From the NCBI GenBank assembly GCA_964540825.1, contig CAZINT010000004.1, positions 24,835 through 88,834 of the forward strand: 64,000 bases of DNA, given 5' to 3'. The notes beneath the pieces were generated by a model, which did not search any database, was not told the origin of the DNA, and saw only the letters and a list, made by a program, of their open reading frames with translations. Source of the DNA: an uncultured Gammaproteobacteria bacterium. GTDB lineage: Bacteria > Patescibacteriota > Patescibacteriia > Magasanikbacterales > GWA2-37-8. The position numbers and the translations under genes are program-made. Numbering within the stretch: the stretch's first letter is position 1; every line of letters begins with the position of its first letter. Of the stretch, positions 5,408 to 39,449 are shown in pieces.

Positions 5408-6955
5408 ATGCCAAAACTCATTCCTATTATCGGTCTTGAAATTCATGTCGAGCTCAAAACTAAATCTAAGATGTTTTGCTCGTGCGTGAATGACCCTTTT
5501 ATTGATACGCCAAACACCAATATTTGCGAAGTCTGCCTGGCGCACCCCGGCACCCTTCCGGTACCAAACAAAATCGGTATTGTCGGCGCGATTGGAATCG
5601 CCAAAGCCCTTAACTGCACCATCGCAAAAACAAGCAAATTTGATCGCAAACATTATTTTTACCCCGATCTTCCCAAGGGTTACCAAATTTCTCAGTATGA
5701 CCAACCTATTGGTGAACACGGTTTTATTGAACTTGAAATAGCAGGCGCAAACCATCGTCCTACTGCTCGTATTGGCGTGACGCGCGTCCATATGGAAGAG
5801 GATACGGCCAAACTTGACCATGCTGCTAGTGGCACTGCTTTGGTTGATTTTAACCGTGCCGGGGTACCACTCGTCGAAATTGTTTCCGACCCCGATGTTG
5901 AAAGCGCTGCCGAGGCCAAGGCCTACTGTCAGGAACTCCAGCTCATTTTCCGCACCCTTGGCGTCAGTAATGCTGATATGGAAAAAGGCCAGATGCGCTG
6001 CGAAGCAAACATCTCTCTTCAAGCGGAAGGCAGTTATACAAATGTGAACGGTGTGATTACCCCCAATGAAGGTGTCAGACTTAACTCCAAAGTTGAAGTA
6101 AAAAATATCAACTCCTTCCGCGCTGTTGAGAAGGCGATTGAGTTTGAAATTAAACGACAGACCGAACTGATTGAAAAAGGCGAAACGTGGATCCCCGAAA
6201 CACGCGGCTGGGATGAAAAAAAACAAGCTACCATCCATCAGCGCAGCAAAGAATCGAGCGCTGATTATCGTTATTTCCCTGAACCGGATATTCCACCGTT
6301 TAACCCGTTGCTGCTTAGTGAAGCAGTTATTTTGCCTGAACTCCCCCAAGCCAAACGCTTACGTTTTGTAACTGAATATGGCTTTTCTAAGGCTGACGCC
6401 CAAATCCTCACCAGCGATCCGGAATGGGCAATTTTCACTGAAAACGTCATGAGCGAACTCACCGAATGGCTGCACTGTCTCCCTGAGAGCAAGGATGACA
6501 GCCCGGAAGTACATCAGAATAAAAAGCAGCAACTGGCGAAGCTTGCCGGCGGCTGGCTCACCACCAAACTCATGGGTGCCATGGCCGAGCGCAAAACTGA
6601 CATCCGCATCCTCCGCATTAAAGAAGAGAACTTTGCCGAACTGATGGCGCTTATTTACACCAACCGCGTCAACTCCACCAACGCGCAAAAAATCCTTATC
6701 GAAATGCTTGATTCTGGTGTCGATATGGACCCAACGCATATCATGGAAGACAAAGGGTATGGACAGATTAGCGACGAAGGCAAACTTGGCACCGTAGCGG
6801 ACGATATTATCAAAAACCATCCAGAACAGGTCGCTCAATTTAAAGCTGGCAAGGAACCGATTATCAAATTCCTCGTCGGCATGCTCATGAAAGCGACCGA
6901 AGGAAGTGCAGACCCGCAGATAGCCGAAAAATTGCTCCGGGAAAAGATGCGGTAA
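5408..6955 (+). CDS. gatB: Asp-tRNA(Asn)/Glu-tRNA(Gln) amidotransferase subunit B
   Basis: GatB motifs (IGLEIHVEL, FDRKHYFYPDLPKGYQISQ) and a C-terminal GatB_Yqey-like domain. Start taken at MPKLIP. Confidence 0.9.
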   Translation: MPKLIPIIGLEIHVELKTKSKMFCSCVNDPFIDTPNTNICEVCLAHPGTLPVPNKIGIVGAIGIAKALNCTIAKTSKFDRKHYFYPDLPKGYQISQYDQPIGEHGFIELEIAGANHRPTARIGVTRVHMEEDTAKLDHAASGTALVDFNRAGVPLVEIVSDPDVESAAEAKAYCQELQLIFRTLGVSNADMEKGQMRCEANISLQAEGSYTNVNGVITPNEGVRLNSKVEVKNINSFRAVEKAIEFEIKRQTELIEKGETWIPETRGWDEKKQATIHQRSKESSADYRYFPEPDIPPFNPLLLSEAVILPELPQAKRLRFVTEYGFSKADAQILTSDPEWAIFTENVMSELTEWLHCLPESKDDSPEVHQNKKQQLAKLAGGWLTTKLMGAMAERKTDIRILRIKEENFAELMALIYTNRVNSTNAQKILIEMLDSGVDMDPTHIMEDKGYGQISDEGKLGTVADDIIKNHPEQVAQFKAGKEPIIKFLVGMLMKATEGSADPQIAEKLLREKMR

Positions 6956-6967
6956 AATTATTTAAAT

Positions 6968-6992
6968 AGCCCGTAAACACGGGCTATTTTTT
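6968..6992 (+). terminator. Rho-independent terminator after gatB
   Basis: agcccg-taaaca-cgggct followed by T6. Confidence 0.8.
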
Positions 6993-7029
6993 ATAAAGTG
7001 CACACTTTAAGTATGTGGACAACACACCT

Positions 7030-7137
7030 TTGACGCACCTGCAATACCCTGCTACACTTAAACGTATGAAACCTATCCTCCCTCACAACCCCTTCCTTTC
7101 CTAGTTGTCGGCCACCCGTATATGGGTGGTTTTTTTA
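7030..7137 (+). promoter_or_regulatory. Pyrimidine (pyrBI-type) transcription attenuator: promoter, leaderless 12-codon leader peptide and intrinsic terminator
   Basis: TTGACG 7030-7035, 17-nt spacer, TACACT 7053-7058. The ORF MKPILPHNPFLS* at 7066-7104 starts about 1-7 nt after the predicted transcription start, and its RNA is C/U-rich. The terminator ccaccc-gtatat-gggtgg plus U7 at 7113-7137 lies 20 nt before the pyrB ATG. Confidence 0.6.
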
Positions 7138-7156
7138 TAAACAAACTTCGCTCTCT

Positions 7157-8080
7157 ATGAAGATACCTTTTACAGGCCGCGATATTATTTCCATCGGCGA
7201 GCTGACCACGCAAGATATTCTTACAGTTCTAGCGACAGCCAAAAAACTTAAGGCAAAACCTCAACCTACCCTGCTCAAAGGTTTAACTATGGCCAGCTGT
7301 TTTTTTGAGCCCTCCACACGAACGAGGCTCTCGTTTGAAACTGCTATGCAAAAACTGGGTGGTCAGGTAATTGGTTTTGCGGACCCAAGTGCTACATCAA
7401 CCAAAAAGGGTGAAACACTCCATGACACGATCAAAATGGTCGAAGGGTATGCGGATATTATTATTCTACGGCATTACCTGGAAGGCGCTGCGAGGCGAGC
7501 CGCCGAAGTAAGCAGCAAGCCGGTCATTAATTGTGGTGACGGCGCCAATCAACACCCTACCCAAACATTGATCGATCTGTATACTATTCAGGAGTGCCAG
7601 AAAAAATTAACCGGCCTTAAAGTTGCGCTTGTCGGCGATCTCAAATACGGCCGCACCGTACATTCCTTGGCCGAGGCACTCACCCATTTTGGAGCACGCC
7701 TCTATTTTGTTGCCCCCGAAGCACTCGCTATGCCAAGCCAGGTAACCAGCCACCTTAAAAAACAAGAGGTTGTTTTTTCTGAACATCAAACAATTGAAAC
7801 TGTTATTGAAGATGTCGATATTGTCTACATGACTCGCATCCAAGCCGAACGCTTTGCCGATCCTTATGAATACGAACGAGTCAAAAATATTTTTGTTCTG
7901 GCTCCTAAAACCTTAGAAAAAAGTAAAAAAAATTTACGCATTTTGCACCCGCTTCCCCGTGTAAACGAAATTATGCCGGAAGTCGACGTATTGCCTCAAG
8001 CCTATTATTTTGAACAAGCGGCCAACGGCGTCTTCGTGCGTCAAGCGCTTTTAGGGCTCATCTCGGGTAAACTAAAATAA
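7157..8080 (+). CDS. pyrB: Aspartate carbamoyltransferase catalytic subunit
   Basis: STRTR and HPxQ motifs; 307 aa. Confidence 0.95.
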   Translation: MKIPFTGRDIISIGELTTQDILTVLATAKKLKAKPQPTLLKGLTMASCFFEPSTRTRLSFETAMQKLGGQVIGFADPSATSTKKGETLHDTIKMVEGYADIIILRHYLEGAARRAAEVSSKPVINCGDGANQHPTQTLIDLYTIQECQKKLTGLKVALVGDLKYGRTVHSLAEALTHFGARLYFVAPEALAMPSQVTSHLKKQEVVFSEHQTIETVIEDVDIVYMTRIQAERFADPYEYERVKNIFVLAPKTLEKSKKNLRILHPLPRVNEIMPEVDVLPQAYYFEQAANGVFVRQALLGLISGKLK

Positions 8081-8085
8081 TTCTT

Positions 8086-8559
8086 ATGATTACTACAGCA
8101 AATCCCCACCTCCAGGTTGCGGCCATTAAACACGGCACGGTGATCGACCACATCAGCGATAAACACGCCCTTAAAATTATTCAACTGCTTCACCTGGCGA
8201 GTGGCGGAACGACGGTCACCGTCGGACTCAATTTGCCGAGTAAAAAAATGGGCTCTAAAGACCTGATTAAAATTGCTGACAGAGAAATTAGTCTCGAAGA
8301 GGCAAATCGCATCGCCCTATTTTCTCCTGAAGCAAGCATTAACATCATCCGCAATTTTAAAATAGTTAAAAAATTTGCAGTTACGTTGCCTAAAAAAATT
8401 TCGGGCCTGCTGGTTTGCCCAAACCCAAAATGTATTACCAACCACGAACTGATGACAACACTGTTTACTGTCGAGAAAAACAAAAAAACCATTGATCTTG
8501 TATGCACCTATTGTGAAAAATTATTTGAGCGAGACGAAATCCAAATCTACCCAACATAG
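8086..8559 (+). CDS. pyrI: Aspartate carbamoyltransferase regulatory subunit
   Basis: 157 aa; C-terminal zinc domain CPNPKC...CTYCE. Confidence 0.9.
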   Translation: MITTANPHLQVAAIKHGTVIDHISDKHALKIIQLLHLASGGTTVTVGLNLPSKKMGSKDLIKIADREISLEEANRIALFSPEASINIIRNFKIVKKFAVTLPKKISGLLVCPNPKCITNHELMTTLFTVEKNKKTIDLVCTYCEKLFERDEIQIYPT

Positions 8560-10858: not shown

Positions 10859-11503
10859 ATGGATACGAGTGAATCAATTGCCACCATGCTTCTTGACCTC
10901 AAAGCAGTCACACTCAGCGTCGACCCTCCCTTTACTTGGTCGTCAGGAATTAAGTCCCCTATTTATTGCGACAATCGCCTGCTCATTTCTTTTCCGGAAG
11001 CACGAAAAAAAGTAATCGAAGGTTTTAAGCAAATTATTGCTGAAAAAAATATTGTCTTTGATGTGGTTGGAGGCACTGCAACCGCCGCTATCCCTTGGGG
11101 AGCATTCCTGGCGTATGAGCTCGATAAACCCATGGTGTATATTCGCCCCGAGCCAAAAGGTCACGGTACCGGCAAACAAGTGGAAGGAACGATGCAGCAG
11201 GGTGCGCGCGTACTCATTATTGAAGATCTGGTTTCGACCGGTGGGAGTTCACTTACATCTGCAGCCGCTTGCGCCCGAGAATATAATGCGGTTATTACTG
11301 ACGTGCTTGCAATTTTTAGTTATGAAATGCAGGAAGCAGAAAATGCTTTTACTGAAAAAAATATTCGTCTCACGACATTGAGTTCGTTTTCGAAGTTGCT
11401 CTGCACAGCTGAAACAAAAGGATACATAAACGAAAAGGAAAAATCCACCGCTCTTTCCTGGAGTAAAGACCCGCGCGGCTGGTTTGAAACTATTTCTAAG
11501 TAA
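10859..11503 (+). CDS. pyrE: Orotate phosphoribosyltransferase
   Basis: PRPP-binding motif VLIIEDLVSTGGS. Confidence 0.9.
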   Translation: MDTSESIATMLLDLKAVTLSVDPPFTWSSGIKSPIYCDNRLLISFPEARKKVIEGFKQIIAEKNIVFDVVGGTATAAIPWGAFLAYELDKPMVYIRPEPKGHGTGKQVEGTMQQGARVLIIEDLVSTGGSSLTSAAACAREYNAVITDVLAIFSYEMQEAENAFTEKNIRLTTLSSFSKLLCTAETKGYINEKEKSTALSWSKDPRGWFETISK

Positions 11504-11510
11504 ACTCACT

Positions 11511-12329
11511 ATGAACGCTCTTGAAAAACTGGAACGAAGTATTAAAAAAAATAATTCACTCGTGTGCGTCGGCCTTGATCCTGAAATAGCAAAGCTTCCT
11601 GAACAATTTAAAAATTCCAATACTCCACAGTTTGATTTTAATCGAGCGATCATCGATGCCACGCACGACCTCGTCTGTGCCTATAAACCAAACCCCGCAT
11701 TTTATGAAGCACGCGGTGCGGATGGCATCCGTGAATTAAAAATGACTTGCGACTATATTCGTGAAACGTATCCGGATATTTTTCTCATTTTGGATTTAAA
11801 ACGCGCCGATATTGGCAATACCAGCTGCGGTTCGGCTGAGTTTGGCTTTGATTATCTTGGTGCAGACGCAGTAACCCTGAATCCGTACCTTGGTAGCGAC
11901 GCGCTTGCTCCCTACCTCGAGCGGGCCGACAAAGCATCGTTCATCCTCTGCCGCACGTCCAATGCCGGTAGCGGCGAAATTCAAGACTTATTGGTTGATG
12001 GTGTACCGCTCTACCAAAAAATTGCTTTAAAAATTGCCACCGAGTGGAACAAAAATAAAAACTGTGGCTTGGTTGCTGGCGCCACGTATCCTACTGAACT
12101 TGCGACTGTCCGCCACCTTGCAGGCGATCTGCCTATTCTAACACCCGGTATTGGTGGCCAAGGCGGCAGCGTTGAAGCCATACTTAAGGCCGGGTTAACA
12201 CCGCAAAAAACCGGTCTCATCATCAATTCTTCGCGAAGTATTATTTTTGCCGGTAGCGGCAAAGATTTTGCCGAAAAGGCCAGATCTGCCGCTTTGGAAC
12301 TCCGCAAAGAAATACATAATTTTTGCTAA
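11511..12329 (+). CDS. pyrF: Orotidine 5'-phosphate decarboxylase (long/type-2 form)
   Basis: VCVGLDP, DLKRADIGNT and the rest of the OMPdecase fold; 272 aa. Confidence 0.85.
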   Translation: MNALEKLERSIKKNNSLVCVGLDPEIAKLPEQFKNSNTPQFDFNRAIIDATHDLVCAYKPNPAFYEARGADGIRELKMTCDYIRETYPDIFLILDLKRADIGNTSCGSAEFGFDYLGADAVTLNPYLGSDALAPYLERADKASFILCRTSNAGSGEIQDLLVDGVPLYQKIALKIATEWNKNKNCGLVAGATYPTELATVRHLAGDLPILTPGIGGQGGSVEAILKAGLTPQKTGLIINSSRSIIFAGSGKDFAEKARSAALELRKEIHNFC

Positions 12330-12354
12330 TTTTAGCCAAAATAGTTTGTACACC

Positions 12355-12413
12355 TCTTGACAAAAGGGGTGTTTTTTGATAGGATGGAGCGTTGCTCAAA
12401 TACGGAGGTTTCC
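12355..12413 (+). promoter_or_regulatory. Sigma-70-like promoter plus a strong Shine-Dalgarno in front of the high-GC gene
   Basis: TTGACA-17-TAGGAT, then GGAGG 7 nt before ATG 12414. This contrasts with the Shine-Dalgarno-poor neighbouring genes. Confidence 0.5.
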
Positions 12414-12752
12414 ATGTCCCAGCCTTTTCATGAGGTTCCTATCGGCTTTTTGATCGCCGTGCTTTACCACCACGAGATCGTCGAGGCGGTTGACCATGAC
12501 CAGGTGCCTGGAACAGTCGGCGAGGTCCTCGACTGGTCGAAGGCCATCCTCGGCATCGAGTTCGAGCCGGCCCAGTTCGTCGAGGCGCTCAAGCAGCTGG
12601 CGGAGTACTTCCGTCGCCGGCTCCACGACGACACGATCCTCAGACGGCTGAACGATGTGGTTCCGAACCGCCTCGACAAGGGTCAGAGCATCGACGCCAT
12701 TGAGCAGGCCATGCTCAAGGAGTTCGGCAATCACATCTTTTTCCGGAAGTAA
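12414..12752 (+). CDS. Hypothetical 112-aa protein encoded in a ~62% GC island
   Basis: Clean ORF with very high third-position GC. ORFs overlap on both strands, as expected for high-GC DNA. The product was not recognised. Confidence 0.55.
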   Translation: MSQPFHEVPIGFLIAVLYHHEIVEAVDHDQVPGTVGEVLDWSKAILGIEFEPAQFVEALKQLAEYFRRRLHDDTILRRLNDVVPNRLDKGQSIDAIEQAMLKEFGNHIFFRK

Positions 12753-12786
12753 CCCTGGTCAAGCGGCACACTCGACCACCCTCGTC

Positions 12787-12845
12787 CCGCCGCTACCCAC
12801 CAAGTTCATTCGTGGACTTTCGTAGGTAGCGGGACGAGCAATCGA
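12787..12845 (+). repeat. GC-rich stem-loop (14-bp stem, 27-nt loop) 3' of the high-GC gene
   Basis: ctcgtcccgc(cg)ctacc ... ggtagcgggacgag. No U-tract, as in terminators of high-GC organisms. Confidence 0.5.
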
Positions 12846-12865
12846 TCCGCTTGTTCCTTACAAAA

Positions 12866-12897
12866 AATAAAAACCACCTAAAAGGTGGTTTTTATTT
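12866..12897. terminator. Bidirectional rho-independent terminator
   Basis: An A-run, then aaaccacc-taaaa-ggtggttt, then a T-run. Confidence 0.75.
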
Positions 12898-14043
12898 TTA
12901 TACTCCGTTTGCCGCAACGAGTCGGTGCCTAATCGCATCACGCAAATTCACGAGTTCCGGGTAGTCATAAAAAAATAATACTTTCTGATCAGCGATCGAC
13001 GTGCCGGTTGGCCTGTCTTTAAGGACAAACGCGCTCCAACTTTCGGCCATATCTTCTTCAGGATTTACTGCGGCATAGTCGGTAATAAACCAGTCCTGAT
13101 GTTGGCTATACCAGTCGTTCATTTGTTCTTGTATGGCCGCATCATAGCCATCTTGAGAAAGCGCTTTATATTCACTCCAGGTCGATTTCCAAAAGCGATT
13201 GTAAAAAGTATTCAGATACGAATCGCTGCGCATACAGCCAAACAAAGAAGTGTAGGCTCTGCAGTCACTGCCGTCATCTATGCTACTGCTTTCGCCATCT
13301 TCGTTATCAGAAGGCGCCACGCTTTCATCATAACCCGCTTGTTCGTTTTGATTCAGGGTAAGTGCGTGACCAAACTCATGAATTAAAAAATAGGTGAGGC
13401 TTCCCGGGTCAAAATTGTTATTCGGAAACGCATCAGCAATATCGACGTAAAGGGTGTAGGTTCCGCTTCCGGCGTCGCCTGGCACCAAAGACGCTGCTGA
13501 TTTCGAGTTACCGTCGGTATACACGACGTAACCGTCGACAATGTCATACATCCCTTTTGGAAATAGGGTGGTGAACAATTTCCACGGACGCTGCAGCTTA
13601 TTTTTATCCTTTTGCCATTTTTTCAATGCCGCCGGAACCGCTGGACGGTCAGTAAGTTTGAGTTTGCCGTCATCTGCGCTGTACTCCATAATCGACGTTT
13701 CTTCATCCACGTCAAACGAATCCTGTTCGCGATCAGCGTTAATATACTTGTTCCAAATCGCCAATCCCTTAGCCGCTGCAGCCGACTCCTTCGCCGTGCA
13801 ATCGCCGCTTGAGCTGCACACGAGTTTGCAGGCCTTAGCACTCACGTCATAGCGCTCGCTTTTCAAACAATCTTCAGGCTTCAATTCCGGAAAACTATGT
13901 ACCGGAGCTTCGTTTGAAAAAGAAAATAGTCGGGCCTCGCTGATTTTGGCACTGACTGTTTGCAAAGCGTCCCCCGGCTGGCAGCCAGCACCCATTGTGA
14001 GGACGGCGATTAACCCTGCGGTTATAAAATATTTTTTAGACAT
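12898..14043 (-). CDS. Secreted zinc-metallopeptidase-like lipoprotein
   Basis: Signal peptide with a lipobox (LTMGAGC), HEFGH zincin motif and a downstream Glu (EDMAE); 381 aa. Confidence 0.65.
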   Translation of the reverse strand: MSKKYFITAGLIAVLTMGAGCQPGDALQTVSAKISEARLFSFSNEAPVHSFPELKPEDCLKSERYDVSAKACKLVCSSSGDCTAKESAAAAKGLAIWNKYINADREQDSFDVDEETSIMEYSADDGKLKLTDRPAVPAALKKWQKDKNKLQRPWKLFTTLFPKGMYDIVDGYVVYTDGNSKSAASLVPGDAGSGTYTLYVDIADAFPNNNFDPGSLTYFLIHEFGHALTLNQNEQAGYDESVAPSDNEDGESSSIDDGSDCRAYTSLFGCMRSDSYLNTFYNRFWKSTWSEYKALSQDGYDAAIQEQMNDWYSQHQDWFITDYAAVNPEEDMAESWSAFVLKDRPTGTSIADQKVLFFYDYPELVNLRDAIRHRLVAANGV

Positions 14044-15591: not shown

Positions 15592-16557
15592 TTATTTCTT
15601 CTTATTACGGCTCACACGAATCAGCCCGCCGCACGGAATAATCTCGACGCCTTTCTTTTCAAGTTCATCAAGAAACAAATTCATTCCCAGTGAATCGGAC
15701 GACATATGGCCGGCAATAATAACGTTCATATGCTGTTCGTTTACCCGCTTTAGAGCGTCCTCACGCATGTGCATACTAATAATTGTGCTGTATCCTACGC
15801 GAGAAAACTCTTCGTATACCTGCGCAGAGGGCTCGGTGCCACCGGTCATCTCAACGAGATATTTACCTACTTTTTTATGACGACCGCCCGCAATTATTTT
15901 TGGTCCCGCTCCGCGCCGTTTCGCCTCTTGATATTCGGGCTGTTCCATCAGCAGGTCAAGCATTTCACCAACTGTTTCTGGTTTTTCTTTCTTAAAAAGA
16001 TTTTCTAAAAATTGATTAACCAGGTTATCGGTAATCGTATGCGTGCTCATGAAGTTAATGCCGAGGATGCGAGCAATGTCGACCGCTCGGTGATGATTGG
16101 CTGCGTGTACGCTTCGCCCGACTTCTTGAATACGGTCACCCATTACTTTTTCAGCCACATGAATGGGCAGTCCAAAACTTTCAAAAACACCAGTCGACAT
16201 CTCCATCACTTCGTGAAGGCTCGCTAGCGCATTGCCTGTTGGATGGTGCGAAATTGCTAAATCGATCTTTTTACCGCGCTCATTCAACTGAGTGGCCATA
16301 AGTATTTCCCCGGCATCAATATCGATACCTGCAATAATCCGCTTCACCTCTTTGCGACCGTCGTCAACATGAATATAGCTATCCGGGTACGGATTCGTAA
16401 GGCGGGTAGTATCAAAATATTTTTTATCCTTTTCTTTAAGCTCGCTATATTCCTTTTTTTCCCGAGCTAAATACTTGGCCACTTCTTTCGCCCCCCGCGG
16501 ATCGGCTGCAATACCCATTTTAACTCCCAGTTCAAAGACATTTTTTACATTCAACAT
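15592..16557 (-). CDS. NIF3 (YqfO/YbgI) family dinuclear-metal protein
   Basis: ISHHP motif and the overall NIF3 fold in the translation; 321 aa. Confidence 0.8.
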   Translation of the reverse strand: MLNVKNVFELGVKMGIAADPRGAKEVAKYLAREKKEYSELKEKDKKYFDTTRLTNPYPDSYIHVDDGRKEVKRIIAGIDIDAGEILMATQLNERGKKIDLAISHHPTGNALASLHEVMEMSTGVFESFGLPIHVAEKVMGDRIQEVGRSVHAANHHRAVDIARILGINFMSTHTITDNLVNQFLENLFKKEKPETVGEMLDLLMEQPEYQEAKRRGAGPKIIAGGRHKKVGKYLVEMTGGTEPSAQVYEEFSRVGYSTIISMHMREDALKRVNEQHMNVIIAGHMSSDSLGMNLFLDELEKKGVEIIPCGGLIRVSRNKKK

Positions 16558-16668
16558 AGCAAAAATTTTAAGAATACGGCAGGTTTATAGTACCTTGCAG
16601 CATCCAGTCTGTCAAATGGGTAATTGGTGTTATTTTGGCTTTGTTGAGCTTTTTTTTCATTAAAAAGC

Positions 16669-16813
16669 TTGACAAAACACTGAACTTGGCATAAAATACG
16701 TTTCTAAATATGAACAAACTTCGTCACAAGTTACCCGTCATCCCAAACAAAATTTTTAAACTCTTTTTTACCTGCTAAAAAGCCTCTTTTACTAAAGGCT
16801 TTTTTTAATTTTT
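16669..16813 (+). promoter_or_regulatory. Promoter, leaderless 22-codon leader peptide and terminator-like hairpin in front of the ATP-grasp operon
   Basis: TTGACA 16669-74, 17-nt spacer, TAAAAT 16692-97. ORF MNKLRHKLPVIPNKIFKLFFTC* at 16710-16778, whose stop overlaps the hairpin aaaagcct-cttttactaa-aggctttt; then U7..U5 directly before ATG 16814. Confidence 0.5.
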
Positions 16814-19219
16814 ATGGAAAAAAACGAACTAAAAGGCAAGACAATTTTAGTAGTCCATGCTGGCAGCATTAAAAAACGTTTTGTTTTTCAGCGCCTCAAG
16901 AAGCTCGGCATGACTGTGGTTTGTCTTAATAAAGACAAAAACCCGCTTATGCTGCCGTACGTCGATCATTGGATTTTGGCCGATCTTAACAATTACAAAG
17001 AATGCATTCAAAGCGTTAAATCGTTCCTTGCTTCACACCCTAAAACAGGCATTGACGGCGTGTTTACGTTTTGGGAAGAAAGCGTCCTTTTAACCGCAAA
17101 AATTGTCGATGCTTTTGGTTTTATCGGAACCTCCTTTAGAGTCGCCAATACTGCACGCAACAAATACTTATTCCGTGAATTTTGCCAACAAAACGGGCTC
17201 CCCGCCCCACGACACCAAATTATTCGTACTCGTGAGGATACTAAAAAACTACACAAAGAACTTCGTTTTCCGCTCGTTATCAAGCCGCAATATGGCTCCA
17301 GCAGCGCTTTCGTGGTACGCGTCGAGAATAGTAAAGAGCTGGAGGAAGCCTACGACTTCGTTAAAAATAATATAAAATCGCACGAATATGCGCCCGATTG
17401 GGATACCCTTGAAGTATTCGTCGAAGAATATATTGATGGCGACGAGGTCGATGTTGATATTCTCCTTCAAAACGGTAAAATCAAATTTTATTGTATTTCA
17501 GATAATTATAATAAAACGCGTGATCGCTTTTTCGTTGATAACGGGCAAGCGATCCCTTCAAGCCTGCCTGAGAAAGAACAGAATGACCTGATTGCCATGG
17601 CCGAAGAAATTTTGGAAAAACTCAATATTCAAGACGGCTGCATTCACTTTGAAGCCAAATCAACGAAAAAAGGACCTGTGCCGCTTGAAATTAATATGCG
17701 CCTCGGCGGCGACTATATCCCGTCATACATTAAAGGCGCGTGGGGAATTGATTTGGTTGATTATATTGCTAAAATCGCTCTTGGCATTCATTTTAAAATC
17801 GAGAAACCCGCAACACCGCTTAAGTATATTATTGGGTGGGACATTTACCCCGAGCACTCCGGTATTTTGGTAGAGCTTAATATCGATGAACAGCTCCGCA
17901 AAAAAACATATATCGAAGACATGTATCTGGCCAAAGAAACGGGTGACGCAGTACTTTTGCCGCCTGAAGGCAACGATGGCCTGGGGTGGTTAACGGTATC
18001 GGGCGATAACCTGCTCGACGCTCAGGATAACTTAAAAGAAGCCCGAAAATATATTACTTATAAGGTGGTTGGTTTTGACACCGAATCAACGCTCGGTAAA
18101 ACTGCTCGGCAGAACAGACTGTCTGCTGCGGTTATGAATAAGCAGCTCCTCCTCAAGGCGTCAAAAATCGAAAAAGTGCGCCACTCATCACTGGAAAATC
18201 AACGTAATTTGCGTATCGGCATTATCGGCAACTTGCCCGAACTAGGCAGCAAACAAAGAGCGATCCCTACCGCCAGTATTGATATCGCCAAAGAACTTAA
18301 CCACATCGGCTACGCCACGACTGTTTTTGACTTCAACAATCTTAACCGCGCTATTAGTGAATTAAAACGCACTTCGGTCGACCTCATTATCAATGCTTCC
18401 GAAGGTATTAATAACGACCCTAAACTCAGGCCGCAGGCAGCCGCTATTCTTGAGGCCATGCAATTGCCTTTTACCGGATCGAGCTCGTTTAACACCTCTC
18501 TTTCGCGCGATAAAATTCGCACCAAAAAACTATTGACCTATCACAATATCCCCACACCGGCCTGGGATTATGCTTACACGCTGGAAGACACGATTGACGA
18601 AAACCTCCGCTATCCATTAATCGTCAAACCCGGCACAACAGATAACTCAAGCGGCATTACCAATAATTCGGTTGTTAAAAACAAACAAGAGCTTGAACGT
18701 GAACTCAGACGAATTATTGTTGAAATGGGTCAGCCGGCCTTGGTTGAAGAATATATTGAAGGAGACGAGTATTATGTTTCGATCCTCGGCAGCAGCAAAG
18801 AAGACTTTAAGGTACTGCCGCTTTCCCGCTCTATCTTTAAAAAGTTACCGTCAAAATACTGGCACATCTACTCAGAAGAAGCCAAGGAACAAACCAATCC
18901 TGTTTACAAAAAAATTATCGTTGAGCGCCCAGTAAAAAATATCAGCGCCAAGCTTGAGTCGCTCTTGACCGAGATCGCTCTTGATACCTACCAAATTTTA
19001 CACTGTCGTGATTATGGCAGCGTTGAAATTCGCGTCGATAAAGATGATAATCCGTACGTGCTTGAACTTAATCCGAACCCGACCCTCCATACACAATCGG
19101 CGATTGTAAAATCGGCCAAGTTAGTCAACCTTAATTACAGTCAGTTACTGGAAGAAATTATCAGACTTTCAATCAAACGATTCAAGAAAAAAACTATGTA
19201 TCCTACATTTCTTGAGTAA
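16814..19219 (+). CDS. Fusion of two ATP-grasp domains in one 801-aa protein: N-terminal L-amino-acid-ligase-like module, C-terminal D-Ala-D-Ala-ligase-like module
   Basis: N-terminal half: VIKPQYGSSS...VFVEEYIDGDE...EINMRLGG. C-terminal half: IVKPGTTDNSSGIT...LVEEYIEGDEYYVSILG...LELNPNP. Confidence 0.75.
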   Translation: MEKNELKGKTILVVHAGSIKKRFVFQRLKKLGMTVVCLNKDKNPLMLPYVDHWILADLNNYKECIQSVKSFLASHPKTGIDGVFTFWEESVLLTAKIVDAFGFIGTSFRVANTARNKYLFREFCQQNGLPAPRHQIIRTREDTKKLHKELRFPLVIKPQYGSSSAFVVRVENSKELEEAYDFVKNNIKSHEYAPDWDTLEVFVEEYIDGDEVDVDILLQNGKIKFYCISDNYNKTRDRFFVDNGQAIPSSLPEKEQNDLIAMAEEILEKLNIQDGCIHFEAKSTKKGPVPLEINMRLGGDYIPSYIKGAWGIDLVDYIAKIALGIHFKIEKPATPLKYIIGWDIYPEHSGILVELNIDEQLRKKTYIEDMYLAKETGDAVLLPPEGNDGLGWLTVSGDNLLDAQDNLKEARKYITYKVVGFDTESTLGKTARQNRLSAAVMNKQLLLKASKIEKVRHSSLENQRNLRIGIIGNLPELGSKQRAIPTASIDIAKELNHIGYATTVFDFNNLNRAISELKRTSVDLIINASEGINNDPKLRPQAAAILEAMQLPFTGSSSFNTSLSRDKIRTKKLLTYHNIPTPAWDYAYTLEDTIDENLRYPLIVKPGTTDNSSGITNNSVVKNKQELERELRRIIVEMGQPALVEEYIEGDEYYVSILGSSKEDFKVLPLSRSIFKKLPSKYWHIYSEEAKEQTNPVYKKIIVERPVKNISAKLESLLTEIALDTYQILHCRDYGSVEIRVDKDDNPYVLELNPNPTLHTQSAIVKSAKLVNLNYSQLLEEIIRLSIKRFKKKTMYPTFLE

Positions 19220-19228
19220 GGATATTCT

Positions 19229-20143
19229 ATGGAAATGCGCCCGCCAACAATTGACCTTATCTCCGACAAGTCTATTGCCGAAAAGCTCTGGAAACAGTTT
19301 AGCCCGGGAGAAACTATTTATGACGACTGGGATTTTCGAGAAACGTTTCACCGCTATTATCATAACGAATTATTTTTTTATACTGCGAATGTTGATGAAA
19401 AAATAGTCGCGCTCCTGCCGCTCCAGATGGGTGAAAATGGTACTACGCTCGAATTTTTTGGAGGCGACTACATGGAAGATAACCGCGTTTTTACCCTCCC
19501 CGGGTATGAATACTGCATTCCCCAGCTCTACAAACACCTCGACAAACCAAATGATTTAGAATTCATTCGCGGCACCGACCCGTACACGCAAACTTTTCCG
19601 ATCGTGGATTACAAATACGTACTCCCCCTCGATACGTTTAAGAGTAGCGACGACTATATCGAAGCCCAGTACCACGGCGAAACCAAAAAGAAATTCAAAA
19701 AACGTTTACGCAAAATAGACGAAACGAACCCGCAAATTTTAGTTAATAACTGGGAGGATTTGGAACTTCTTTTTAAACTCAATATCGACCAATTTAAAGA
19801 CGGGCCCCGGCACTCCATGTTTGCCCGCGAGCATCGCCAAGATATTTTTCGCGACTTGTGCAAACCACACAACACCTTCACCCCTCGCCTCCTTACTTTT
19901 GTAGTTAATGGAGAAAAGCAGGCTGTTTCACTCGCCTTACTTTATAACAAAAATTACGCTTCCATTAACACCGGCATCGTTGCTGAACCGCTGCCAAACC
20001 TCAAAGAATACATCCACATCAAAAAATTTGATGATGCGATTACACAAGGCTGTACGCTTTTTGATGCATTTGTGAGAGACTACGGATGGAAAGAAAAATG
20101 GGGTTTCAAAAAAATTCCTCAATACCAATTCAAAGCTTCCTAA
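19229..20143 (+). CDS. Paralogue 1 of a pair: putative FemABX/BioF2-like (GNAT-fold) aminoacyl/acyl-transferase
   Basis: 304 aa. About 35-40% identical by eye to the next ORF, with the same motif order (LEFFGG..MEDN, FPIxDYxY, HGETKKK..KR.RK, LLTF..NG.KQAV, DxGWK). The lysine/arginine-rich motif resembles the Fem-family RK motif. Family call is tentative. Confidence 0.4.
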   Translation: MEMRPPTIDLISDKSIAEKLWKQFSPGETIYDDWDFRETFHRYYHNELFFYTANVDEKIVALLPLQMGENGTTLEFFGGDYMEDNRVFTLPGYEYCIPQLYKHLDKPNDLEFIRGTDPYTQTFPIVDYKYVLPLDTFKSSDDYIEAQYHGETKKKFKKRLRKIDETNPQILVNNWEDLELLFKLNIDQFKDGPRHSMFAREHRQDIFRDLCKPHNTFTPRLLTFVVNGEKQAVSLALLYNKNYASINTGIVAEPLPNLKEYIHIKKFDDAITQGCTLFDAFVRDYGWKEKWGFKKIPQYQFKAS

Positions 20144-20178
20144 ATCACATTTTTAATATACCGCCCGCACGACCGTTT

Positions 20179-21087
20179 ATGTCTTTTACGATACAAAAAA
20201 TTACGGATCTTGAGGAAGCAAAAAAATATTGGAGCCTTTTGACTCCTGGCCAAACAATCTATGATGTTTGGGATTTTCGGTATTGCGCCTATGCATTCAC
20301 CAACCATGAATTGGCATTTTACGTTGGTTTTGAAGCCGAAGAGCCTGTCGGACTCCTCCCCCTCGAATACCATGGCTCTGCCAAATACTTGGAATTCTTT
20401 GGTGGTCGCTTTATGGAAGATAACAAAATCTTTTTAAAAAAAGGATACGAAGACAAAGCCCCTTACTTTTGGCAAGCGATCAATCTCCCCGCTCGACTTT
20501 CGTATATTACCGCAAGCGATTCTTTTGCCAGCACCTTCCCGATCTTAGATTATCGATATTCGCTTCCCTTAGCCGAATTGGGCAGTGTGGAAAATTATAT
20601 TCAAACCCGCTTTCATGGCGAAACTAAAAAAAAGCTTCTTAAACGCATCAGAAAGTTTGAATTTGAAAATGAAATTACGATACTCGAAAATCAATGGGAT
20701 GACTTAGATCTATTATTTTATTTTAACAAAGAAAAATTTAAAGCAGATTCTATTTTTCATTTTCCCTTCCGCGAAGCGCTTTTTAAAGAACTCGCGCATT
20801 CTCCATTTAGCCCTAAACTGCTTACCTTCATAATAAACGGTAAGAAACAAGCGGTCACTATGTCACTTGCCCACAAAAAAACCTATGTGTCCCTCAATTC
20901 AGGTGTGAGCGCTGAAGCGTCCAAAGATTTAAGCAGTTTTATGAGACTTAAAAAAATAGAGCACGCTTTCAAACACGGAATGACCTTGTACGATGCCTTG
21001 GCCAACGACTGTGGATGGAAGGACGCTTGGCACTTTGATAAATCTCCGCAATACGAGTGGAGGCGTGACTTGCCGCCAGAAAATTAA
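20179..21087 (+). CDS. Paralogue 2 of the Fem/BioF2-like putative transferase
   Basis: 303 aa; tandem duplicate of the 19229-20143 gene. Start chosen at ATG 20179, after the upstream stop. Confidence 0.4.
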   Translation: MSFTIQKITDLEEAKKYWSLLTPGQTIYDVWDFRYCAYAFTNHELAFYVGFEAEEPVGLLPLEYHGSAKYLEFFGGRFMEDNKIFLKKGYEDKAPYFWQAINLPARLSYITASDSFASTFPILDYRYSLPLAELGSVENYIQTRFHGETKKKLLKRIRKFEFENEITILENQWDDLDLLFYFNKEKFKADSIFHFPFREALFKELAHSPFSPKLLTFIINGKKQAVTMSLAHKKTYVSLNSGVSAEASKDLSSFMRLKKIEHAFKHGMTLYDALANDCGWKDAWHFDKSPQYEWRRDLPPEN

Positions 21088-29927: not shown

Positions 29928-30515
29928 ATGTCTCCGGCCGAACAATCGGACCTCGTTCTCGCTTGTCACCAGGGTAACACCGAAGCCTTTGGCAAACTCT
30001 ATGAACAATTCATAGAGCCAATTTATAATTTCATTTATTATAAAACGCATCACAAAGAAACCGCCGAAGATCTTACAAGCCAAACTTTTTTTAAAGCCTA
30101 TGATTCAATTAAAAAATGTGACCCCGCGCAGGGGACGTTTTCAAGCTGGATCTACCGCATCGCCCGTAACTCCATAATCGATCACTATCGCACCCAAAAA
30201 CAACACAGCGATATTGAAGATGCATTTGACCTCTCTGACGGTAAAAATGGTGAAAGTGATGTTCACAACCGTATTGAACTCACTAAAGTCACCACCTATT
30301 TACAGGGCCTTTCCAGCGAACAACGTGATATCATTATCCTCCGGCTCTGGCAAGAGCTCAGTTTTGCGGAAATTGCCGCCATTATGAACAAAAGCGAAGC
30401 AAGCTGCAAAATGAGCCTCAAGCGCACACTTGAAAAACTTCGCAGCGACCTCGGAAATGAAGCACTGTTACTTTTAGCCGGGCTATTCGTAGTACATAGT
30501 ATATGGACCATATAA
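29928..30515 (+). CDS. ECF-type sigma-70 family sigma factor
   Basis: Region 2 (FIYYKTHHKETAEDLTSQTFFKAY) and region 4 HTH (LSFAEIAAIMNKSEASCKMSLKR). Confidence 0.85.
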   Translation: MSPAEQSDLVLACHQGNTEAFGKLYEQFIEPIYNFIYYKTHHKETAEDLTSQTFFKAYDSIKKCDPAQGTFSSWIYRIARNSIIDHYRTQKQHSDIEDAFDLSDGKNGESDVHNRIELTKVTTYLQGLSSEQRDIIILRLWQELSFAEIAAIMNKSEASCKMSLKRTLEKLRSDLGNEALLLLAGLFVVHSIWTI

Positions 30516-32095
30516 ATAAAACACTTGAAGAACTCTATCGCCTGGACCCGGAGCTCAAGAAGCATGAAACCATGCTTAAAAGCACCCTTGGCAAGATACT
30601 GGAAAGTAAACCGGCCACTGGTTTTGATCCAGCTTTTGCCCGGCGTCTTAAAGCCGAGCTTGCCGAGCGAGCGACCAATTCTTCACGTCCTGGATTTATT
30701 ACTAACCTTACTACTATGCTCCGCCTCAACAAAATGGCGCTTATGGGTGGTGTGGCCGGCGTTTTGGCCCTTGCCCTCGTGATAACCAACATTCCCTTTC
30801 ACCGCAACCCGTCTCTGGCGTTTGCCTATGAAATTACTCCTGTCGGCAAAATGGCCTTTGGCTCGCTGGCCGGAACGCAAAACGGTGCCCGAGAAGTGGC
30901 TGCTCCTACGGACGCCGCAGCCTCACCTGCCCCGATGATGACTGCCAGCGGCATGGGTGGCGGCACGACTGCTGCGGTAGCACCGACACTTGATAAGCGC
31001 GTCGCCAACTCCAGCATGATAGTCGCACCAGATATGTACCGACCAATCACGTACCGCTATGCCGGTAACGAACTGCCAGCACTTTCCAGCGACCAACTCG
31101 AAGTTTTCAAACGCCTCAAACCAAGCGCCGGAATAAGCATTAACGATCTCGGCGGACTTTCCAACGACCTCGTCAATCTCGGCAGCTTCTCAAACGCCTC
31201 CGCTCGTAACATCGAAATTGTTGAAGATAAAGACAAAGGTTATATTATTAATTTTAGCCTTACCGAAGGAGTGGTTTCCATTTCCCAAAATTGGGAAAAA
31301 TGGAATACCTGCCCGAACGGTATCTGCCCGGAACTTGCCCCACTCACCCAGGCTGATGTACCAAACGACGAAAGTCTCATTGCTATTGCGAATAACTTCC
31401 TTACACGTCATGGCATTTCAACCGAAGGCTACGCTGCTCCACAAGTAGAAGCGCAGCCTCGCTACTACCTCATGGACGCTCGCCCAGCCGCTGAATCTGC
31501 AACATATGTTCCTGAAACCATGAACGTTGTCTACCCGCTTACCTTAAAAGGTCAGACGGTATACGAAATGGGCAGTAGCCCCATCGGCATCCGTGTTTCA
31601 ATTAATATTCGCGATAAGCAGGTAACCGGCGCCTGGGATATTCGCAGCAACCAATACCAGAGCTCGCTCTACGATGTTGAAACCGACACCGCTCGCCTCA
31701 TTCGCATCGCCGAACAAGGTGGTAATTTATACGGATCATCCCCTACCCCTGAAAACGCTATCACCCTTGACCTTGGCACACCAACGATTGGCCTCGCCCG
31801 CACCTGGCACCCAATTAACAACGGTATGAACCAGGAAGAGCTTTTCGTTCCGGTCTACATCTTCCCTGTTAAACCACTGAGTGACGAAACCGCCAAACTC
31901 TTACCTTCATATTACTACCAATCAACCAGCATCATGGTTCCGCTCGTCAAAGAACTTTTGGTTGATGCCGATAAACCACTGCCAACACCACAGCCAATTC
32001 CAATGGACGCTATGATCAAAACTAATAGCGCAAGTCCGGTTTCAAACCCTCCAGCAGCTATGACCGAACCAGCTATTGCCCCAGTAAAGAGATAA
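30503..32095 (+). CDS. Putative anti-sigma factor: single-pass membrane protein with a large extracytoplasmic domain
   Basis: Overlaps the sigma gene by 13 nt. About 95 cytoplasmic residues, one transmembrane helix, then a domain of about 410 aa. Confidence 0.5.
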   Translation: MDHINKTLEELYRLDPELKKHETMLKSTLGKILESKPATGFDPAFARRLKAELAERATNSSRPGFITNLTTMLRLNKMALMGGVAGVLALALVITNIPFHRNPSLAFAYEITPVGKMAFGSLAGTQNGAREVAAPTDAAASPAPMMTASGMGGGTTAAVAPTLDKRVANSSMIVAPDMYRPITYRYAGNELPALSSDQLEVFKRLKPSAGISINDLGGLSNDLVNLGSFSNASARNIEIVEDKDKGYIINFSLTEGVVSISQNWEKWNTCPNGICPELAPLTQADVPNDESLIAIANNFLTRHGISTEGYAAPQVEAQPRYYLMDARPAAESATYVPETMNVVYPLTLKGQTVYEMGSSPIGIRVSINIRDKQVTGAWDIRSNQYQSSLYDVETDTARLIRIAEQGGNLYGSSPTPENAITLDLGTPTIGLARTWHPINNGMNQEELFVPVYIFPVKPLSDETAKLLPSYYYQSTSIMVPLVKELLVDADKPLPTPQPIPMDAMIKTNSASPVSNPPAAMTEPAIAPVKR

Positions 32096-32143: not shown

Positions 32144-32866
32144 CTACTCACTGAAAAAATCAAATTCACCGGGTATATTTATACCGCGCAAGCGATTCAA
32201 GTCTTGCTTACGCCCCTCAAAAAAATCAATCGACTGAAACACCGCTTCATAATCAAGCTCTGGCCCAAGTAAACAGAGGCCATATTCAAACCCCTTTACT
32301 TTCGAACGAATTTCATTCGCGAGTGTCGGGTGGTCTTGTTCTTTATCAGCCAGTTCTCGGAGTGTATCTAAATTTTTTTCAATTTTTTCAAGGAGGTCGG
32401 TAAATTCTTGTACGCGCCTTAGGTATTTATTTTTGTGCAGTCCTTGGACTTCTTGCGAAGCGTATTTGTCCAGGTCCTGCTGCAAGTCAACAAGGCGAAC
32501 GCTTAATTCTTGACGCTCTTCGGTTGTAAAATAATCCGCTGGCCGGCCCGAATGCAGGTCGCGGAGTGTTCCGCCGTAGTGTTTAAAATCCAAGTACTTT
32601 TTGTGCAGCTCGGGTGACAGACGGGGAAGTAAAAAATGCTCGCCCACCGCATTCTCGGCTGATACTAGAAACTCTTTATACGCCTGGTTCCAGGGCCACA
32701 GCTCATACCCAAACTCAATCATTGTATCTTCCACCTCATCAAGCGTCATTGTTTGGTCATTTTTGAGATGATCAAGTGCATGGGCCATTTTTTGTTTTTT
32801 TTCAGCCGGAAAGAGCGGTGGAATATTTTTATAAAGGTGTTGAAAAAGTTCAACGGTTGATTGCAT
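32144..32866 (-). CDS. Hypothetical cytoplasmic protein
   Basis: 240-aa ORF with no recognised motif. Confidence 0.45.
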   Translation of the reverse strand: MQSTVELFQHLYKNIPPLFPAEKKQKMAHALDHLKNDQTMTLDEVEDTMIEFGYELWPWNQAYKEFLVSAENAVGEHFLLPRLSPELHKKYLDFKHYGGTLRDLHSGRPADYFTTEERQELSVRLVDLQQDLDKYASQEVQGLHKNKYLRRVQEFTDLLEKIEKNLDTLRELADKEQDHPTLANEIRSKVKGFEYGLCLLGPELDYEAVFQSIDFFEGRKQDLNRLRGINIPGEFDFFSE

Positions 32867-37611: not shown

Positions 37612-39339
37612 TTAACGCACTACCCCACCCCATTCAATAACTGTAAATCCACTGCGCTTTGGCGTTGTCCCCAAATTTTCCGGCTCTACGGAAATTGGCC
37701 GATCAAGGGGTGTGTAGTCCATAAGGATGCGAACAATGGTATCTGGTTTTGGATTAATCGTCAGCGGAGCGAGCACATCCATTTGCCGAGTTCCAAGGAA
37801 CGTTACAAAGTAATACGGTTTCGCTTGCATACGGGGCAGCCAGAACTCCAGAAAATCAGCCGTTTCTTTGGCATTCATACCAAGATACGCCAATTTTTCT
37901 TTAAGGAAACTTTCTACTTCTGTCTTTTTAACAACGAAACCTGTTTTTGGTGTTTGGTATAACCCACCGCGGCCTTCCCAGAACAAATACGGATAGGTTT
38001 TACCTGTTTTCATTTCAGTAAGTGCGCCATTTGGTTCGGCGACCACATTCCACCCTTGATTATATTCAGGGTCGCTATAACTAAGACCGCCCTTTGGCTC
38101 AACTTTAACACTTACTGCCGTAGTTTTTTCGGGATAGAGATAAATAACCGGTTTACCGCATTCAGCCATAGAACCAAGCTCTGATTTACTGAGTTTAACT
38201 AAGCGACCAAAGGGATCAACCCAGAATACCAGGGGGTGCATACTTACAAACTCCGCGTAGCTAATCTTGTCGCCATCACGCCCAGGAGAATAGCTATTGT
38301 CATAGTAATCTTTGAGCATCTTATTATTGGCATCTTTGAGTTCATACACGGTATCGCCTTTACTTGTTTTGCCAGCCGCCTTAAGATCACGCGCAATAGT
38401 AATGTCGGTCGGCGGGACAACGGAAAGAAAATCACTGCTGCCGCACCCACCGCGGGTTGTGTATCCATACTCACTCGTATTTACAGTACCGTCATTCCAC
38501 GTAATAGCTGGAACCGACACATTTTCTTTATGAGTAAAGAAATCTGGCTGCAAAGTATAAATAATCGTAAAACCGTCAGGACTTACAAAATAAAAAGCGC
38601 CGGTACTTGTCGAAGTATACAGCGGTCCATGTGCCGCATCAGTAAGGAGCACAGGGGCAGTCTTGTCAGCTGTAATAGTTGGACTAAAAAAGATATAACT
38701 TTGCTTAGTAAGTACCTGCCGATCATTTTTTACCGTGATTGTTTCTGGAAAATCAAACAACGGGAGTGTAAAGTCAGTATCAACTACTAATTTTGAACCG
38801 AGTGAGGGGTTCCAAATAGATGTACTGCCACCATAATCTGAATAATATGTTTCGGAATATTTGCTAAGAAGTATTATCTGACCGCCGTATTCAACAAGGC
38901 GCATATTGGTGGAAGGACCCATGCCATCCGGTGGAACTGTCAATAATATAACGCGCCCTGGTTGTCCGTTGTACGTGAATGCTCCAATCTGAGCATAGTC
39001 TGACTGCTCTTCGTAATTAAACTCGTTTTTTGAAGTCAAATAACCCAATCGCGCAATTGGGCGCGGTGTATACCAGTTTATTTGACCAGCCAAGTCTGCG
39101 GGAAGTTTGGTTGTCTGAAGTGAAGTTGTTGCAGTACCTACGCCCGGGTCAGTAGTGGTTGGAACATCAATTACCTGATTATCCGGTGTATCGTCAGGCA
39201 AAGTATTTGCAGGCGCCGAGTTTGAATTCGGAACACCAGGCATACTTGGGCGATACAGCCAATACCAAACAGAAAAAGCTAGGAGCAGAACAACAATTCC
39301 TGCCGCGGCTATCGCCAGGTTGCGACGCGTAGTATTCAT
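37612..39339 (-). CDS. Membrane-anchored extracytoplasmic protein, function unknown
   Basis: N-terminal transmembrane helix, a proline/threonine-rich linker, and 575 aa with no recognised motif. Confidence 0.5.
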   Translation of the reverse strand: MNTTRRNLAIAAAGIVVLLLAFSVWYWLYRPSMPGVPNSNSAPANTLPDDTPDNQVIDVPTTTDPGVGTATTSLQTTKLPADLAGQINWYTPRPIARLGYLTSKNEFNYEEQSDYAQIGAFTYNGQPGRVILLTVPPDGMGPSTNMRLVEYGGQIILLSKYSETYYSDYGGSTSIWNPSLGSKLVVDTDFTLPLFDFPETITVKNDRQVLTKQSYIFFSPTITADKTAPVLLTDAAHGPLYTSTSTGAFYFVSPDGFTIIYTLQPDFFTHKENVSVPAITWNDGTVNTSEYGYTTRGGCGSSDFLSVVPPTDITIARDLKAAGKTSKGDTVYELKDANNKMLKDYYDNSYSPGRDGDKISYAEFVSMHPLVFWVDPFGRLVKLSKSELGSMAECGKPVIYLYPEKTTAVSVKVEPKGGLSYSDPEYNQGWNVVAEPNGALTEMKTGKTYPYLFWEGRGGLYQTPKTGFVVKKTEVESFLKEKLAYLGMNAKETADFLEFWLPRMQAKPYYFVTFLGTRQMDVLAPLTINPKPDTIVRILMDYTPLDRPISVEPENLGTTPKRSGFTVIEWGGVVR

Positions 39340-39449
39340 AGGAATTTTTTAAAACTAAATCTATTATGAGTGTAGCACCGCACCGAGCTTTCGGCAATAT
39401 AGCAAAAGCCTCTGGTTAAAGAGGCTTTAGCATCTATACTACTGTCCTG

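Follow-up and report, generated by a model that had tools for sequence, protein, structure and literature searches.

How does transcription enter an operon whose promoter is followed, ahead of the first structural gene, by a short open reading frame (ORF) and a terminator-like hairpin? We examined this question in a stretch of 64,000 nucleotides (nt), referred to here as the window, from a member of the Patescibacteria (contig CAZINT010000004.1 of GenBank assembly GCA_964540825.1, positions 24,835 to 88,834 of the forward strand), where such a leader lies in front of genes for an ATP-grasp fusion protein and FemAB-like proteins. The first-pass annotation of this DNA had proposed a leader-peptide/terminator attenuator at this locus, but missed a conserved core in the leader peptide. 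The comparative sequence evidence leads us to lean towards a ribosome-dependent, single-hairpin (pyrBI-type) transcription attenuator in the leader of the ATP-grasp/Fem operon. Most likely, it belongs to a conserved family of leader peptides with a proline (Pro) motif and single terminators that controls this phylum-wide operon. The elements of the leader are given below in coordinates of the window; labels such as L008, L080 and L081 denote the orthologous loci compared with it.

16669..16674, + strand: -35 box TTGACA of the leader/ATP-grasp promoter, recognized by sequence match and invariant in L080 and L081.
16692..16697, + strand: -10 box TAAAAT, 17-nt spacer from the -35 box, recognized by promoter scan.
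16710..16778, + strand: 22-codon leader ORF MNKLRHKLPVIPNKIFKLFFTC, stop included, recognized by translation (UAA stop at 16776-16778).
16722..16745, + strand: peptide core R-x-K-[LF]-P-V-I-P, codons 5-12, the proposed ribosome pause site, recognized by its substitution pattern.
16753..16769, + strand: U-rich distal leader ORF (UUUUU at 16753-16757, UUUUUU at 16764-16769), only partly kept in L081.
16777..16806, + strand: candidate attenuator hairpin (5' arm 16777-16785, loop 16786-16795, 3' arm 16796-16804, U-run 16800-16806), recognized by folding and conservation.

The promoter described in the first-pass annotation, TTGACA-17-TAAAAT, was found where it had been placed and is the top sigma-70-like match (11/12) in the 6 kb scanned. 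Likewise present were the 22-codon ORF, its UAA stop in the 5' arm of the hairpin and a U-tract ending 7 nt before the ATP-grasp ATG. The leader had also been called leaderless, and its ATG does lie close to the promoter (at 16710, 12 nt past the -10 box, with no Shine-Dalgarno sequence upstream), but the 5' untranslated region (UTR) is probably about 5-7 nt long, making the transcript near-leaderless rather than strictly leaderless. In other lineages the leader ORF lies 13-26 nt past the -10 box. It is plausible that an ORF with so short a 5' UTR (about 6 nt) is translated here, because Shine-Dalgarno sequences are rare and -10 boxes lie near ATGs. Shine-Dalgarno sequences are nearly absent from the window genes (exceptions at 53609-54814 and 57216-57731), and a TAnAnT -10-like box stands 6-12 nt before the start codon of many of them (for example 12898-14043, 32144-32866 and 30503-32095), a pattern which suggests that leaderless or near-leaderless mRNAs are widespread in the organism. 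The leader ORF contains only two Pro codons among its 22 (16734-16736 and 16743-16745), and no run of codons for a regulatory amino acid was found among these 22.

In the hairpin, a 10-nt loop separates AAAAAGCCU (16777-16785) from its pairing partner AGGCUUUUU (16796-16804). The 5' arm overlaps the UAA stop (16776-16778), and the U-run and the stem end 7 nt and 10 nt, respectively, ahead of the ATP-grasp ATG at 16814. Canonical hairpin-plus-U terminators sit between genes in the window, so this type of hairpin is plausibly a working terminator signal in the organism; a simple terminator scan missed the leader hairpin because of its 10-nt loop. The 7-10 nt between hairpin and ATP-grasp ATG leave no room for an internal promoter, and no plausible boxes were seen there. 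The whole 128-nt leader is not unusually structured (z -0.66). Rfam 15 at the gathering threshold returned only one tRNA in the whole window, and at a permissive threshold nothing exceeded 21 bits in 16400-16950, where the best match was Phe_leader (18 bits versus a threshold of 55). Pfam and NCBIfam scans of the leader peptides matched no family. We also observed a hairpin at 39405-39428 on the - strand (AAAGCCTCTTTAACCAGAGGCTTT) that is 3 mismatches from the leader hairpin 16779-16802, with 0 such matches in 100 shuffles; it stands 66 nt upstream of a gene for a 575-amino-acid (aa) protein (37612-39339) and has no U-tract after it.

The evidence that carries our reading comes from relatives of this locus. 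The close comparators represent two species, L080, whose ATP-grasp protein is 83% identical to that of the window, and L081-L086 (81%); the gene order of the window is the same in L080 and L081. In the intergenic alignment with these two loci the -35 box is invariant, and the -10 box reads TAGAGT and TATACT, keeping TAnAnT. The start, frame, 22-codon length and UAA stop of the leader ORF are all kept in L080 (MHTLRHKFPVIPTRIFKLLFTY) and L081 (MTANRTKFPVIPKSLPTSFLTP). The hairpin and U-tract are nearly invariant, the three species differing there by a single substitution in the loop and an inserted G, whereas the remainder diverges. Thus, the comparative check suggested in the first-pass annotation, conservation of the short ORF and hairpin, came out in favor of the proposal, and the module recurs across the phylum with unrelated hairpins, as described below. 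Within core codons 5-12, the substitutions at codon positions 1/2/3 numbered 0/0/5, 1/1/5 and 1/1/5 in the three pairwise comparisons, while the peptide outside R-x-K-[LF]-P-V-I-P varies freely among the three species. Because the core substitutions fall almost only on third codon positions, the leader ORF is very probably translated and the amino-acid sequence of its core under selection. Selection on the leader peptide in turn suggests a motif that pauses or arrests the ribosome, rather than codon counting or sensing of uridine triphosphate (UTP).

Among metagenome contigs no close relative was found, as no ATP-grasp match exceeded 58% identity, and an exact-sequence look-up of the ATP-grasp protein of the window returned no record. 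In L080 the leader terminator and the ATP-grasp ATG are separated by a 73-nt insertion (5895-5975) that is absent from the window and L081 and folds into a strong extra hairpin (GACCGAGCAAAGAGAAAAACGCTTCTCTTGCGGGGTC). It may represent a small mobile insert or else an additional regulatory structure.

More distant orthologous loci, 46-59% identical, were collected from genomes (79) and metagenomes (80), and 121 loci with at least 220 nt of upstream sequence remained after dereplication. Many of these distant loci have an upstream short ORF with a Pro motif after acidic or polar residues, such as EDPYP, EDPFP, EDPLP, EEPNP, ADPDP, TEPDP, EPDS, EPPD, EEPPS, EEPPD, NEPPN, DQPPG, DRPPD or KPPN. About 30 loci have the motif as [DE]-P-P, [DE]-P-x-P or [DE]-P-D, the window clade has it as K-[LF]-P-V-I-P, and the EEKFPR of L093 is a sequence intermediate between the acidic/Pro motifs and the K-F-P of the window clade. 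The Pro codons differ at their wobble positions, so it is the peptide motif that is conserved. A motif-bearing ORF was present on the sense strand in 29 of the 121 loci and on the antisense strand in none of them, and dinucleotide shuffles gave 1.5 +/- 1.2 (maximum 5). When the regular expression for the motif, fixed on the first locus set, was applied to the held-out second set, motif ORFs were found in 8/46 loci, versus 0 antisense.

The Pro motif is also associated with terminators. For this count a slightly broader motif was used, which divided the loci into 33 with the motif and 88 without it; a hairpin with U-tract was detected automatically in 25/33 of the former versus 15/88 of the latter (Fisher p = 3e-9), and terminators in four further motif-bearing loci are visible by eye. 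The terminator stems are unrelated in sequence and fall into at least 10 classes, a lower bound because identity clustering is blurred by shared A- and U-tracts, and compensatory changes occur within one class. The full module of ORF, motif and terminator occurred 24 times within 230 nt upstream of the ATP-grasp gene, where about 0.07 would be expected by chance, and 8 times elsewhere in 2.66 Mb, one of these preceding a second ATP-grasp paralogue. By this sequence count, the module is specific to the ATP-grasp gene. In L008 (Magasanikbacteria UBA11699; the same organism as L095), two ATP-grasp paralogues lie 2.5 kb apart (5977-8358 and 10899-13286), and each is preceded by a different acidic/Pro leader ORF (MDLLRSLDEDPFPQKFK and MGVACLSASDNSEPDSLQVNYLFYL) as well as a separate hairpin with a U-run.

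A second short-ORF family, resembling a conserved small partner protein, seemed to be present in Falkowbacteria-like loci (...REVVIEIGVTYNIK) but was rejected, as the reading frames show the C-terminus of a longer upstream gene; the false family arose because ORF calling began at the first ATG. In these ten loci (L051, L053, L055, L060, L062, L064, L067, L069, L070 and L072) the ATP-grasp gene follows, by 2-67 nt, a longer gene ending ...GWYEN...ADYGKGGMGGGG...REVVIEIGVTYNIK, and neither a leader ORF nor a terminator was found in any of the ten.

The arrangement of stop codon, motif and stem bears on how such a leader might work. Of the 33 motif-bearing loci, 25 have a detected terminator, and in most of these the stop codon falls inside the 5' arm or the loop or only a few nt away from the stem; relative to the first base of the stem it is usually at -3 to +16 nt. 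In four lineages the ORF crosses the terminator and ends in an ATGA that overlaps the ATP-grasp start. The first Pro codon precedes the stem by 26-63 nt, in no locus by fewer than 26, and a ribosome paused at Pro would therefore leave the stem free. A fixed distance between motif and stem was considered and rejected on this range; only the minimum is constrained. A model of the trp type was likewise rejected: no antiterminator pairing exceeded shuffled controls, the duplex energies between spacer and 5' arm being equal to those of shuffled spacers in 22 loci. Since no antiterminator was found, the simplest mechanism is of the single-hairpin, coupling-dependent type.

Under such a mechanism, transcription would begin a few nt before the AUG of the 22-codon ORF, and a ribosome would load on the near-leaderless RNA. 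A ribosome close behind RNA polymerase would sit at or near the UAA when the 3' arm is made, and by lying over the 5' arm would keep the weak terminator from folding, allowing the polymerase to read into the ATP-grasp gene. If the ribosome lagged, the hairpin and U-tract would form and the transcript would end about 7-10 nt before the ATP-grasp ATG. The Pro-containing core would act as a programmed slow or arrest site, with read-through reporting the passage of the ribosome, and that passage may depend on the activity of elongation factor P (EF-P), on the supply of Pro-tRNA or perhaps on a ligand that the nascent chain senses. Overall, pausing would cause termination, and unhindered translation would turn the operon on. 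We infer the termination, coupling, pause, nature of the signal and regulatory sign from the sequence patterns described above. Published work provides precedent for the components: placing a run of prolines ahead of the pyrL terminator lowered expression 26-fold in an efp mutant of E. coli (PMC5021804), and D/E/I/V-P(P)-X are arrest contexts that depend on EF-P/EfpL (PMC11611912), which the X-P(-P)-X contexts in the leaders match.

An EF-P gene is present in the window (61417-61980, - strand), with the loop HVNPGKGAAF and Lys at its tip. The idea that the ATP-grasp/Fem operon is an EF-P modifier was set aside, as we found no evidence for it and, with a single hairpin, a pause would shut the operon down, which makes little sense as feedback. 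We entertain only tentatively a further step, in which the acidic/Pro peptide is a nascent-chain sensor, its arrest being tuned by the status of EF-P or by a small molecule connected with the product of the double ATP-grasp/Fem pathway. In a bolder variant, the leader peptide may double as a substrate or cofactor of the ligase.

The genes that the leader would control, and the promoter on its other side, are the following.

16814..19219, + strand: the putatively controlled gene, encoding an 801-aa fusion of L-amino-acid-ligase-like and Ddl-like (D-Ala-D-Ala-ligase-like) ATP-grasp domains, recognized by domain identification.
19229..21087, + strand: two FemAB-like (Acetyltransf_6, GNAT) genes of the same operon (19229-20143 and 20086-21087), recognized by domains and gene order.
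16587..16615, - strand: divergent promoter (TTGACA, 17 nt, TACTAT) for a 321-aa gene at 15592-16557, its boxes conserved in the alignment.

The upstream gene is divergent and has its own promoter, and the hairpin therefore ends no protein gene, while the ATP-grasp operon would be transcribed only through it. The 801-aa ATP-grasp protein has hundreds of orthologues in Patescibacteria, with named sources in Magasanikbacteria, Roizmanbacteria, Komeilibacteria, Parcubacteria or Patescibacteria. In the mechanical ORF listing, the FemAB-like pair share 58 nt; the second ORF probably has its real start further downstream, and in L080 the called product is 300 aa. L081 has just one FemAB-like gene.

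The window contains a second instance of this layout, which the first-pass annotation had correctly pointed out in front of pyrB.

7030..7137, + strand: promoter, leaderless 12-codon ORF, hairpin and U-run preceding pyrBI-pyrC, recognized by sequence and folding.

The pyrB, pyrI and pyrC genes were all identified in the window. The promoter consists of TTGACG (7030-7035), a 17-nt spacer and TACACT (7053-7058), and the C/U-rich 12-codon ORF MKPILPHNPFLS (7066-7104) starts with an ATG at 7066, 7 nt past the -10 box. The hairpin (7110-7131, -12.8 kcal/mol) is followed by a U-run and stands about 20 nt before pyrB. The pyrB leader is thus truly leaderless and has a stronger terminator than the ATP-grasp leader. 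Its region is 93% identical in L080 and offers no informative variation.

Several observations weigh against an attenuator that works through a Pro-dependent pause. The hairpin is weak on its own (-8.2 kcal/mol with its 10-nt loop, z -1.6 versus shuffles), and the intergenic terminator-like hairpins of the window are stronger, at -12 to -20 kcal/mol. The transcription start, at about 16703-16706, is predicted from the promoter boxes only. The motif of the window clade contains no acidic residue and no Pro-Pro, and may pause ribosomes weakly or not at all. Across the phylum, the motif was found in about a quarter of all orthologous loci and in 29/63 (about half) of those with an upstream spacer of more than 150 nt, and some related leaders have no Pro at all (for example L089, MDYQIKSTQRVNLAFIYIIFLK). 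The regular expression for the motif was derived from the data, a circularity that is mitigated by the held-out set and by the antisense and shuffle controls. Finally, the ATP-grasp/Fem operon is uncharacterized, and its function thus offers no cross-check on the regulatory logic.

Among the other explanations, the one that survives best, although we consider it unlikely, is that the leader ORF encodes a functional small peptide, whether an enzyme substrate, a precursor, a partner or a trans-acting product. The hairpin would then be a leaky terminator that yields an excess of peptide mRNA over enzyme mRNA, as in clusters for ribosomally synthesized and post-translationally modified peptides (RiPPs), an arrangement we rate no higher. 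Selection on the peptide core fits this explanation as well as ours, the ORF directly adjoins an ATP-grasp ligase across the phylum, and many members have a Ser/Thr-rich and then an acidic stretch that could in principle provide ligation sites. However, the peptides of the window clade have no Asp or Glu, even though the enzyme is 58% identical to those encoded beside acidic peptides, and the core of a graspetide-like precursor, with conserved carboxylate (Asp/Glu) and nucleophile (Ser/Thr/Lys) residues, is absent from the three window-clade peptides. The enzyme itself is of the L-amino-acid ligase (LAL)/Ddl type, not the graspetide type, and the Pfam and NCBIfam scans gave no match for the peptides. 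The C-terminal halves range from 15 to 52 aa and are hypervariable, their sequence being determined in part by the hairpin and U-tract, and there are lineages in which the ORF crosses the terminator into the ATP-grasp start. Nor is the ORF an obligatory neighbor of the enzyme: in the flanking DNA, which was all that was searched, it was missing from roughly half of the loci, those with under 150 nt upstream, and none was found where the ATP-grasp gene closely follows another gene.

Ranking behind the small peptide, and in our view doubtful, is the possibility that the hairpin acts mainly on translation, by occluding the unstructured landing site needed by an ATP-grasp start that has no Shine-Dalgarno sequence, and that the leader ORF is a translational coupling device. 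Ribosomes translating the short ORF, or terminating on it, would then melt the hairpin and reinitiate. The geometry would allow for this, with the stem ending 10 nt and the U-run 7 nt before an ATG that lacks a Shine-Dalgarno sequence, and the ATGA overlap in four lineages is classic coupling. However, nearly every hairpin is preceded by an A-tract and followed by a U-tract, a signature of intrinsic terminators that occlusion does not need. The distance from stem to ATG also varies from 8 to 94 nt, and L080 carries its 73-nt insertion precisely there. A translational role and attenuation may, of course, coexist.

Somewhat less probable still is that UTP-sensitive pausing of RNA polymerase in the U-rich distal leader sets read-through, as in pyrBI, and that the peptide sequence is irrelevant. 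The first-pass annotation had likened this part of the leader to the pyrBI pause region, and the U-runs are indeed present at 16753-16757 and 16764-16769, but they are only partly conserved (as seen in L081) and no UTP-specific feature was found. They also carry little information, the whole genome being A/U-rich. As in pyrBI, no antiterminator was found, and the pyrB leader of the window shares the single-hairpin design and has a C/U-rich ORF; sensing of pyrimidines would be sensible there, and UTP sensing is more attractive for that leader than for the ATP-grasp leader. The ATP-grasp/Fem operon has no evident link to UTP, and neither selection on the peptide core nor a phylum-wide Pro motif is necessary for a sensor of nucleoside triphosphates only.

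That chance alone produced a functionless ORF and a weak palindrome in an A/U-rich intergenic region is very improbable: neither the hairpin energy nor the leader fold is significant alone, and with the hairpin thermodynamically weak the case against chance therefore rests on the comparative evidence, that is, on the conservation and codon pattern in relatives, the enrichment statistics and the presence of a separate leader before each of the two paralogues.

The Patescibacteria (candidate phyla radiation) are uncultured, and no cis-regulatory leaders in this group turned up in Rfam or the literature searched. If our reading is true, the ATP-grasp leader would be a comparatively supported case of ribosome-coupled transcription attenuation in Patescibacteria, and one in which the attenuated mRNA is near-leaderless and the genome makes hardly any use of Shine-Dalgarno sequences. 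It would also mean that a widely conserved, uncharacterized ATP-grasp/FemAB-like operon is tightly tied to translational status. Should the peptide prove to be a nascent-chain sensor, Patescibacteria would possess, across the phylum, a feedback switch that is encoded in a peptide and acts on a core peptide-ligase operon. To our knowledge, EF-P-dependent coupling has so far been shown mainly with synthetic constructs, and this natural family of more than 30 Pro-motif leader variants with differing terminators could be used for tests of such coupling. No principle is overturned by these observations, as the class of mechanism is a textbook one.

No description of this leader family was found in the literature searched, and the family has no sequence relationship to the pyrBI, mgtP/mgtL or mycobacterial attenuators, with all of which it shares features. 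The classical trp, his, leu and phe attenuators also place a leader peptide and a terminator upstream of the operon. However, they have a run of regulatory codons and an antiterminator or anti-antiterminator, none of which was found here, and their polarity is opposite, in that a pause in the leader described here should lead to termination. The mycobacterial polycysteine short-ORF attenuators (bioRxiv 10.1101/834739) resemble it in having a leaderless or near-leaderless ORF as first cistron and translation-dependent attenuation, but they respond to Cys-tRNA by way of Cys-codon runs, and the genes under their control are related to cysteine, in contrast to the Pro core and intrinsic terminator found here.

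The proline/EF-P-responsive leaders mgtP (mgtCBR) and mgtL (mgtA) of Salmonella (PMC3641672, PMC6460261) are alike in that Pro codons of the leader tie the progress of the ribosome, and with it downstream transcription, to EF-P or Pro-tRNA. They act through alternative stem-loops in which stalling raises transcription, whereas no alternative structure was found here; the sequences, host phylum and controlled genes are unrelated, and the window clade has X-P-X rather than Pro-Pro. In architecture the leader resembles pyrBI of E. coli and its leader pyrL, in which a single intrinsic terminator without an antiterminator is kept from forming by a ribosome translating close behind the polymerase. 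The pyrL ORF runs through the terminator, as do the leader ORFs of some lineages here. However, pyrL has 44 codons, a Shine-Dalgarno sequence and an unconserved peptide, compared with 22 codons, a near-leaderless start and a selected core in the window, and its signal is UTP-sensitive pausing of the polymerase, whereas the operon here is not a pyrimidine operon. The synthetic PPPPPP-pyrL reporter (Elgamal et al. 2016, PMC5021804) has the same polarity as that proposed here: a pause of the ribosome before a single terminator leads to more termination.

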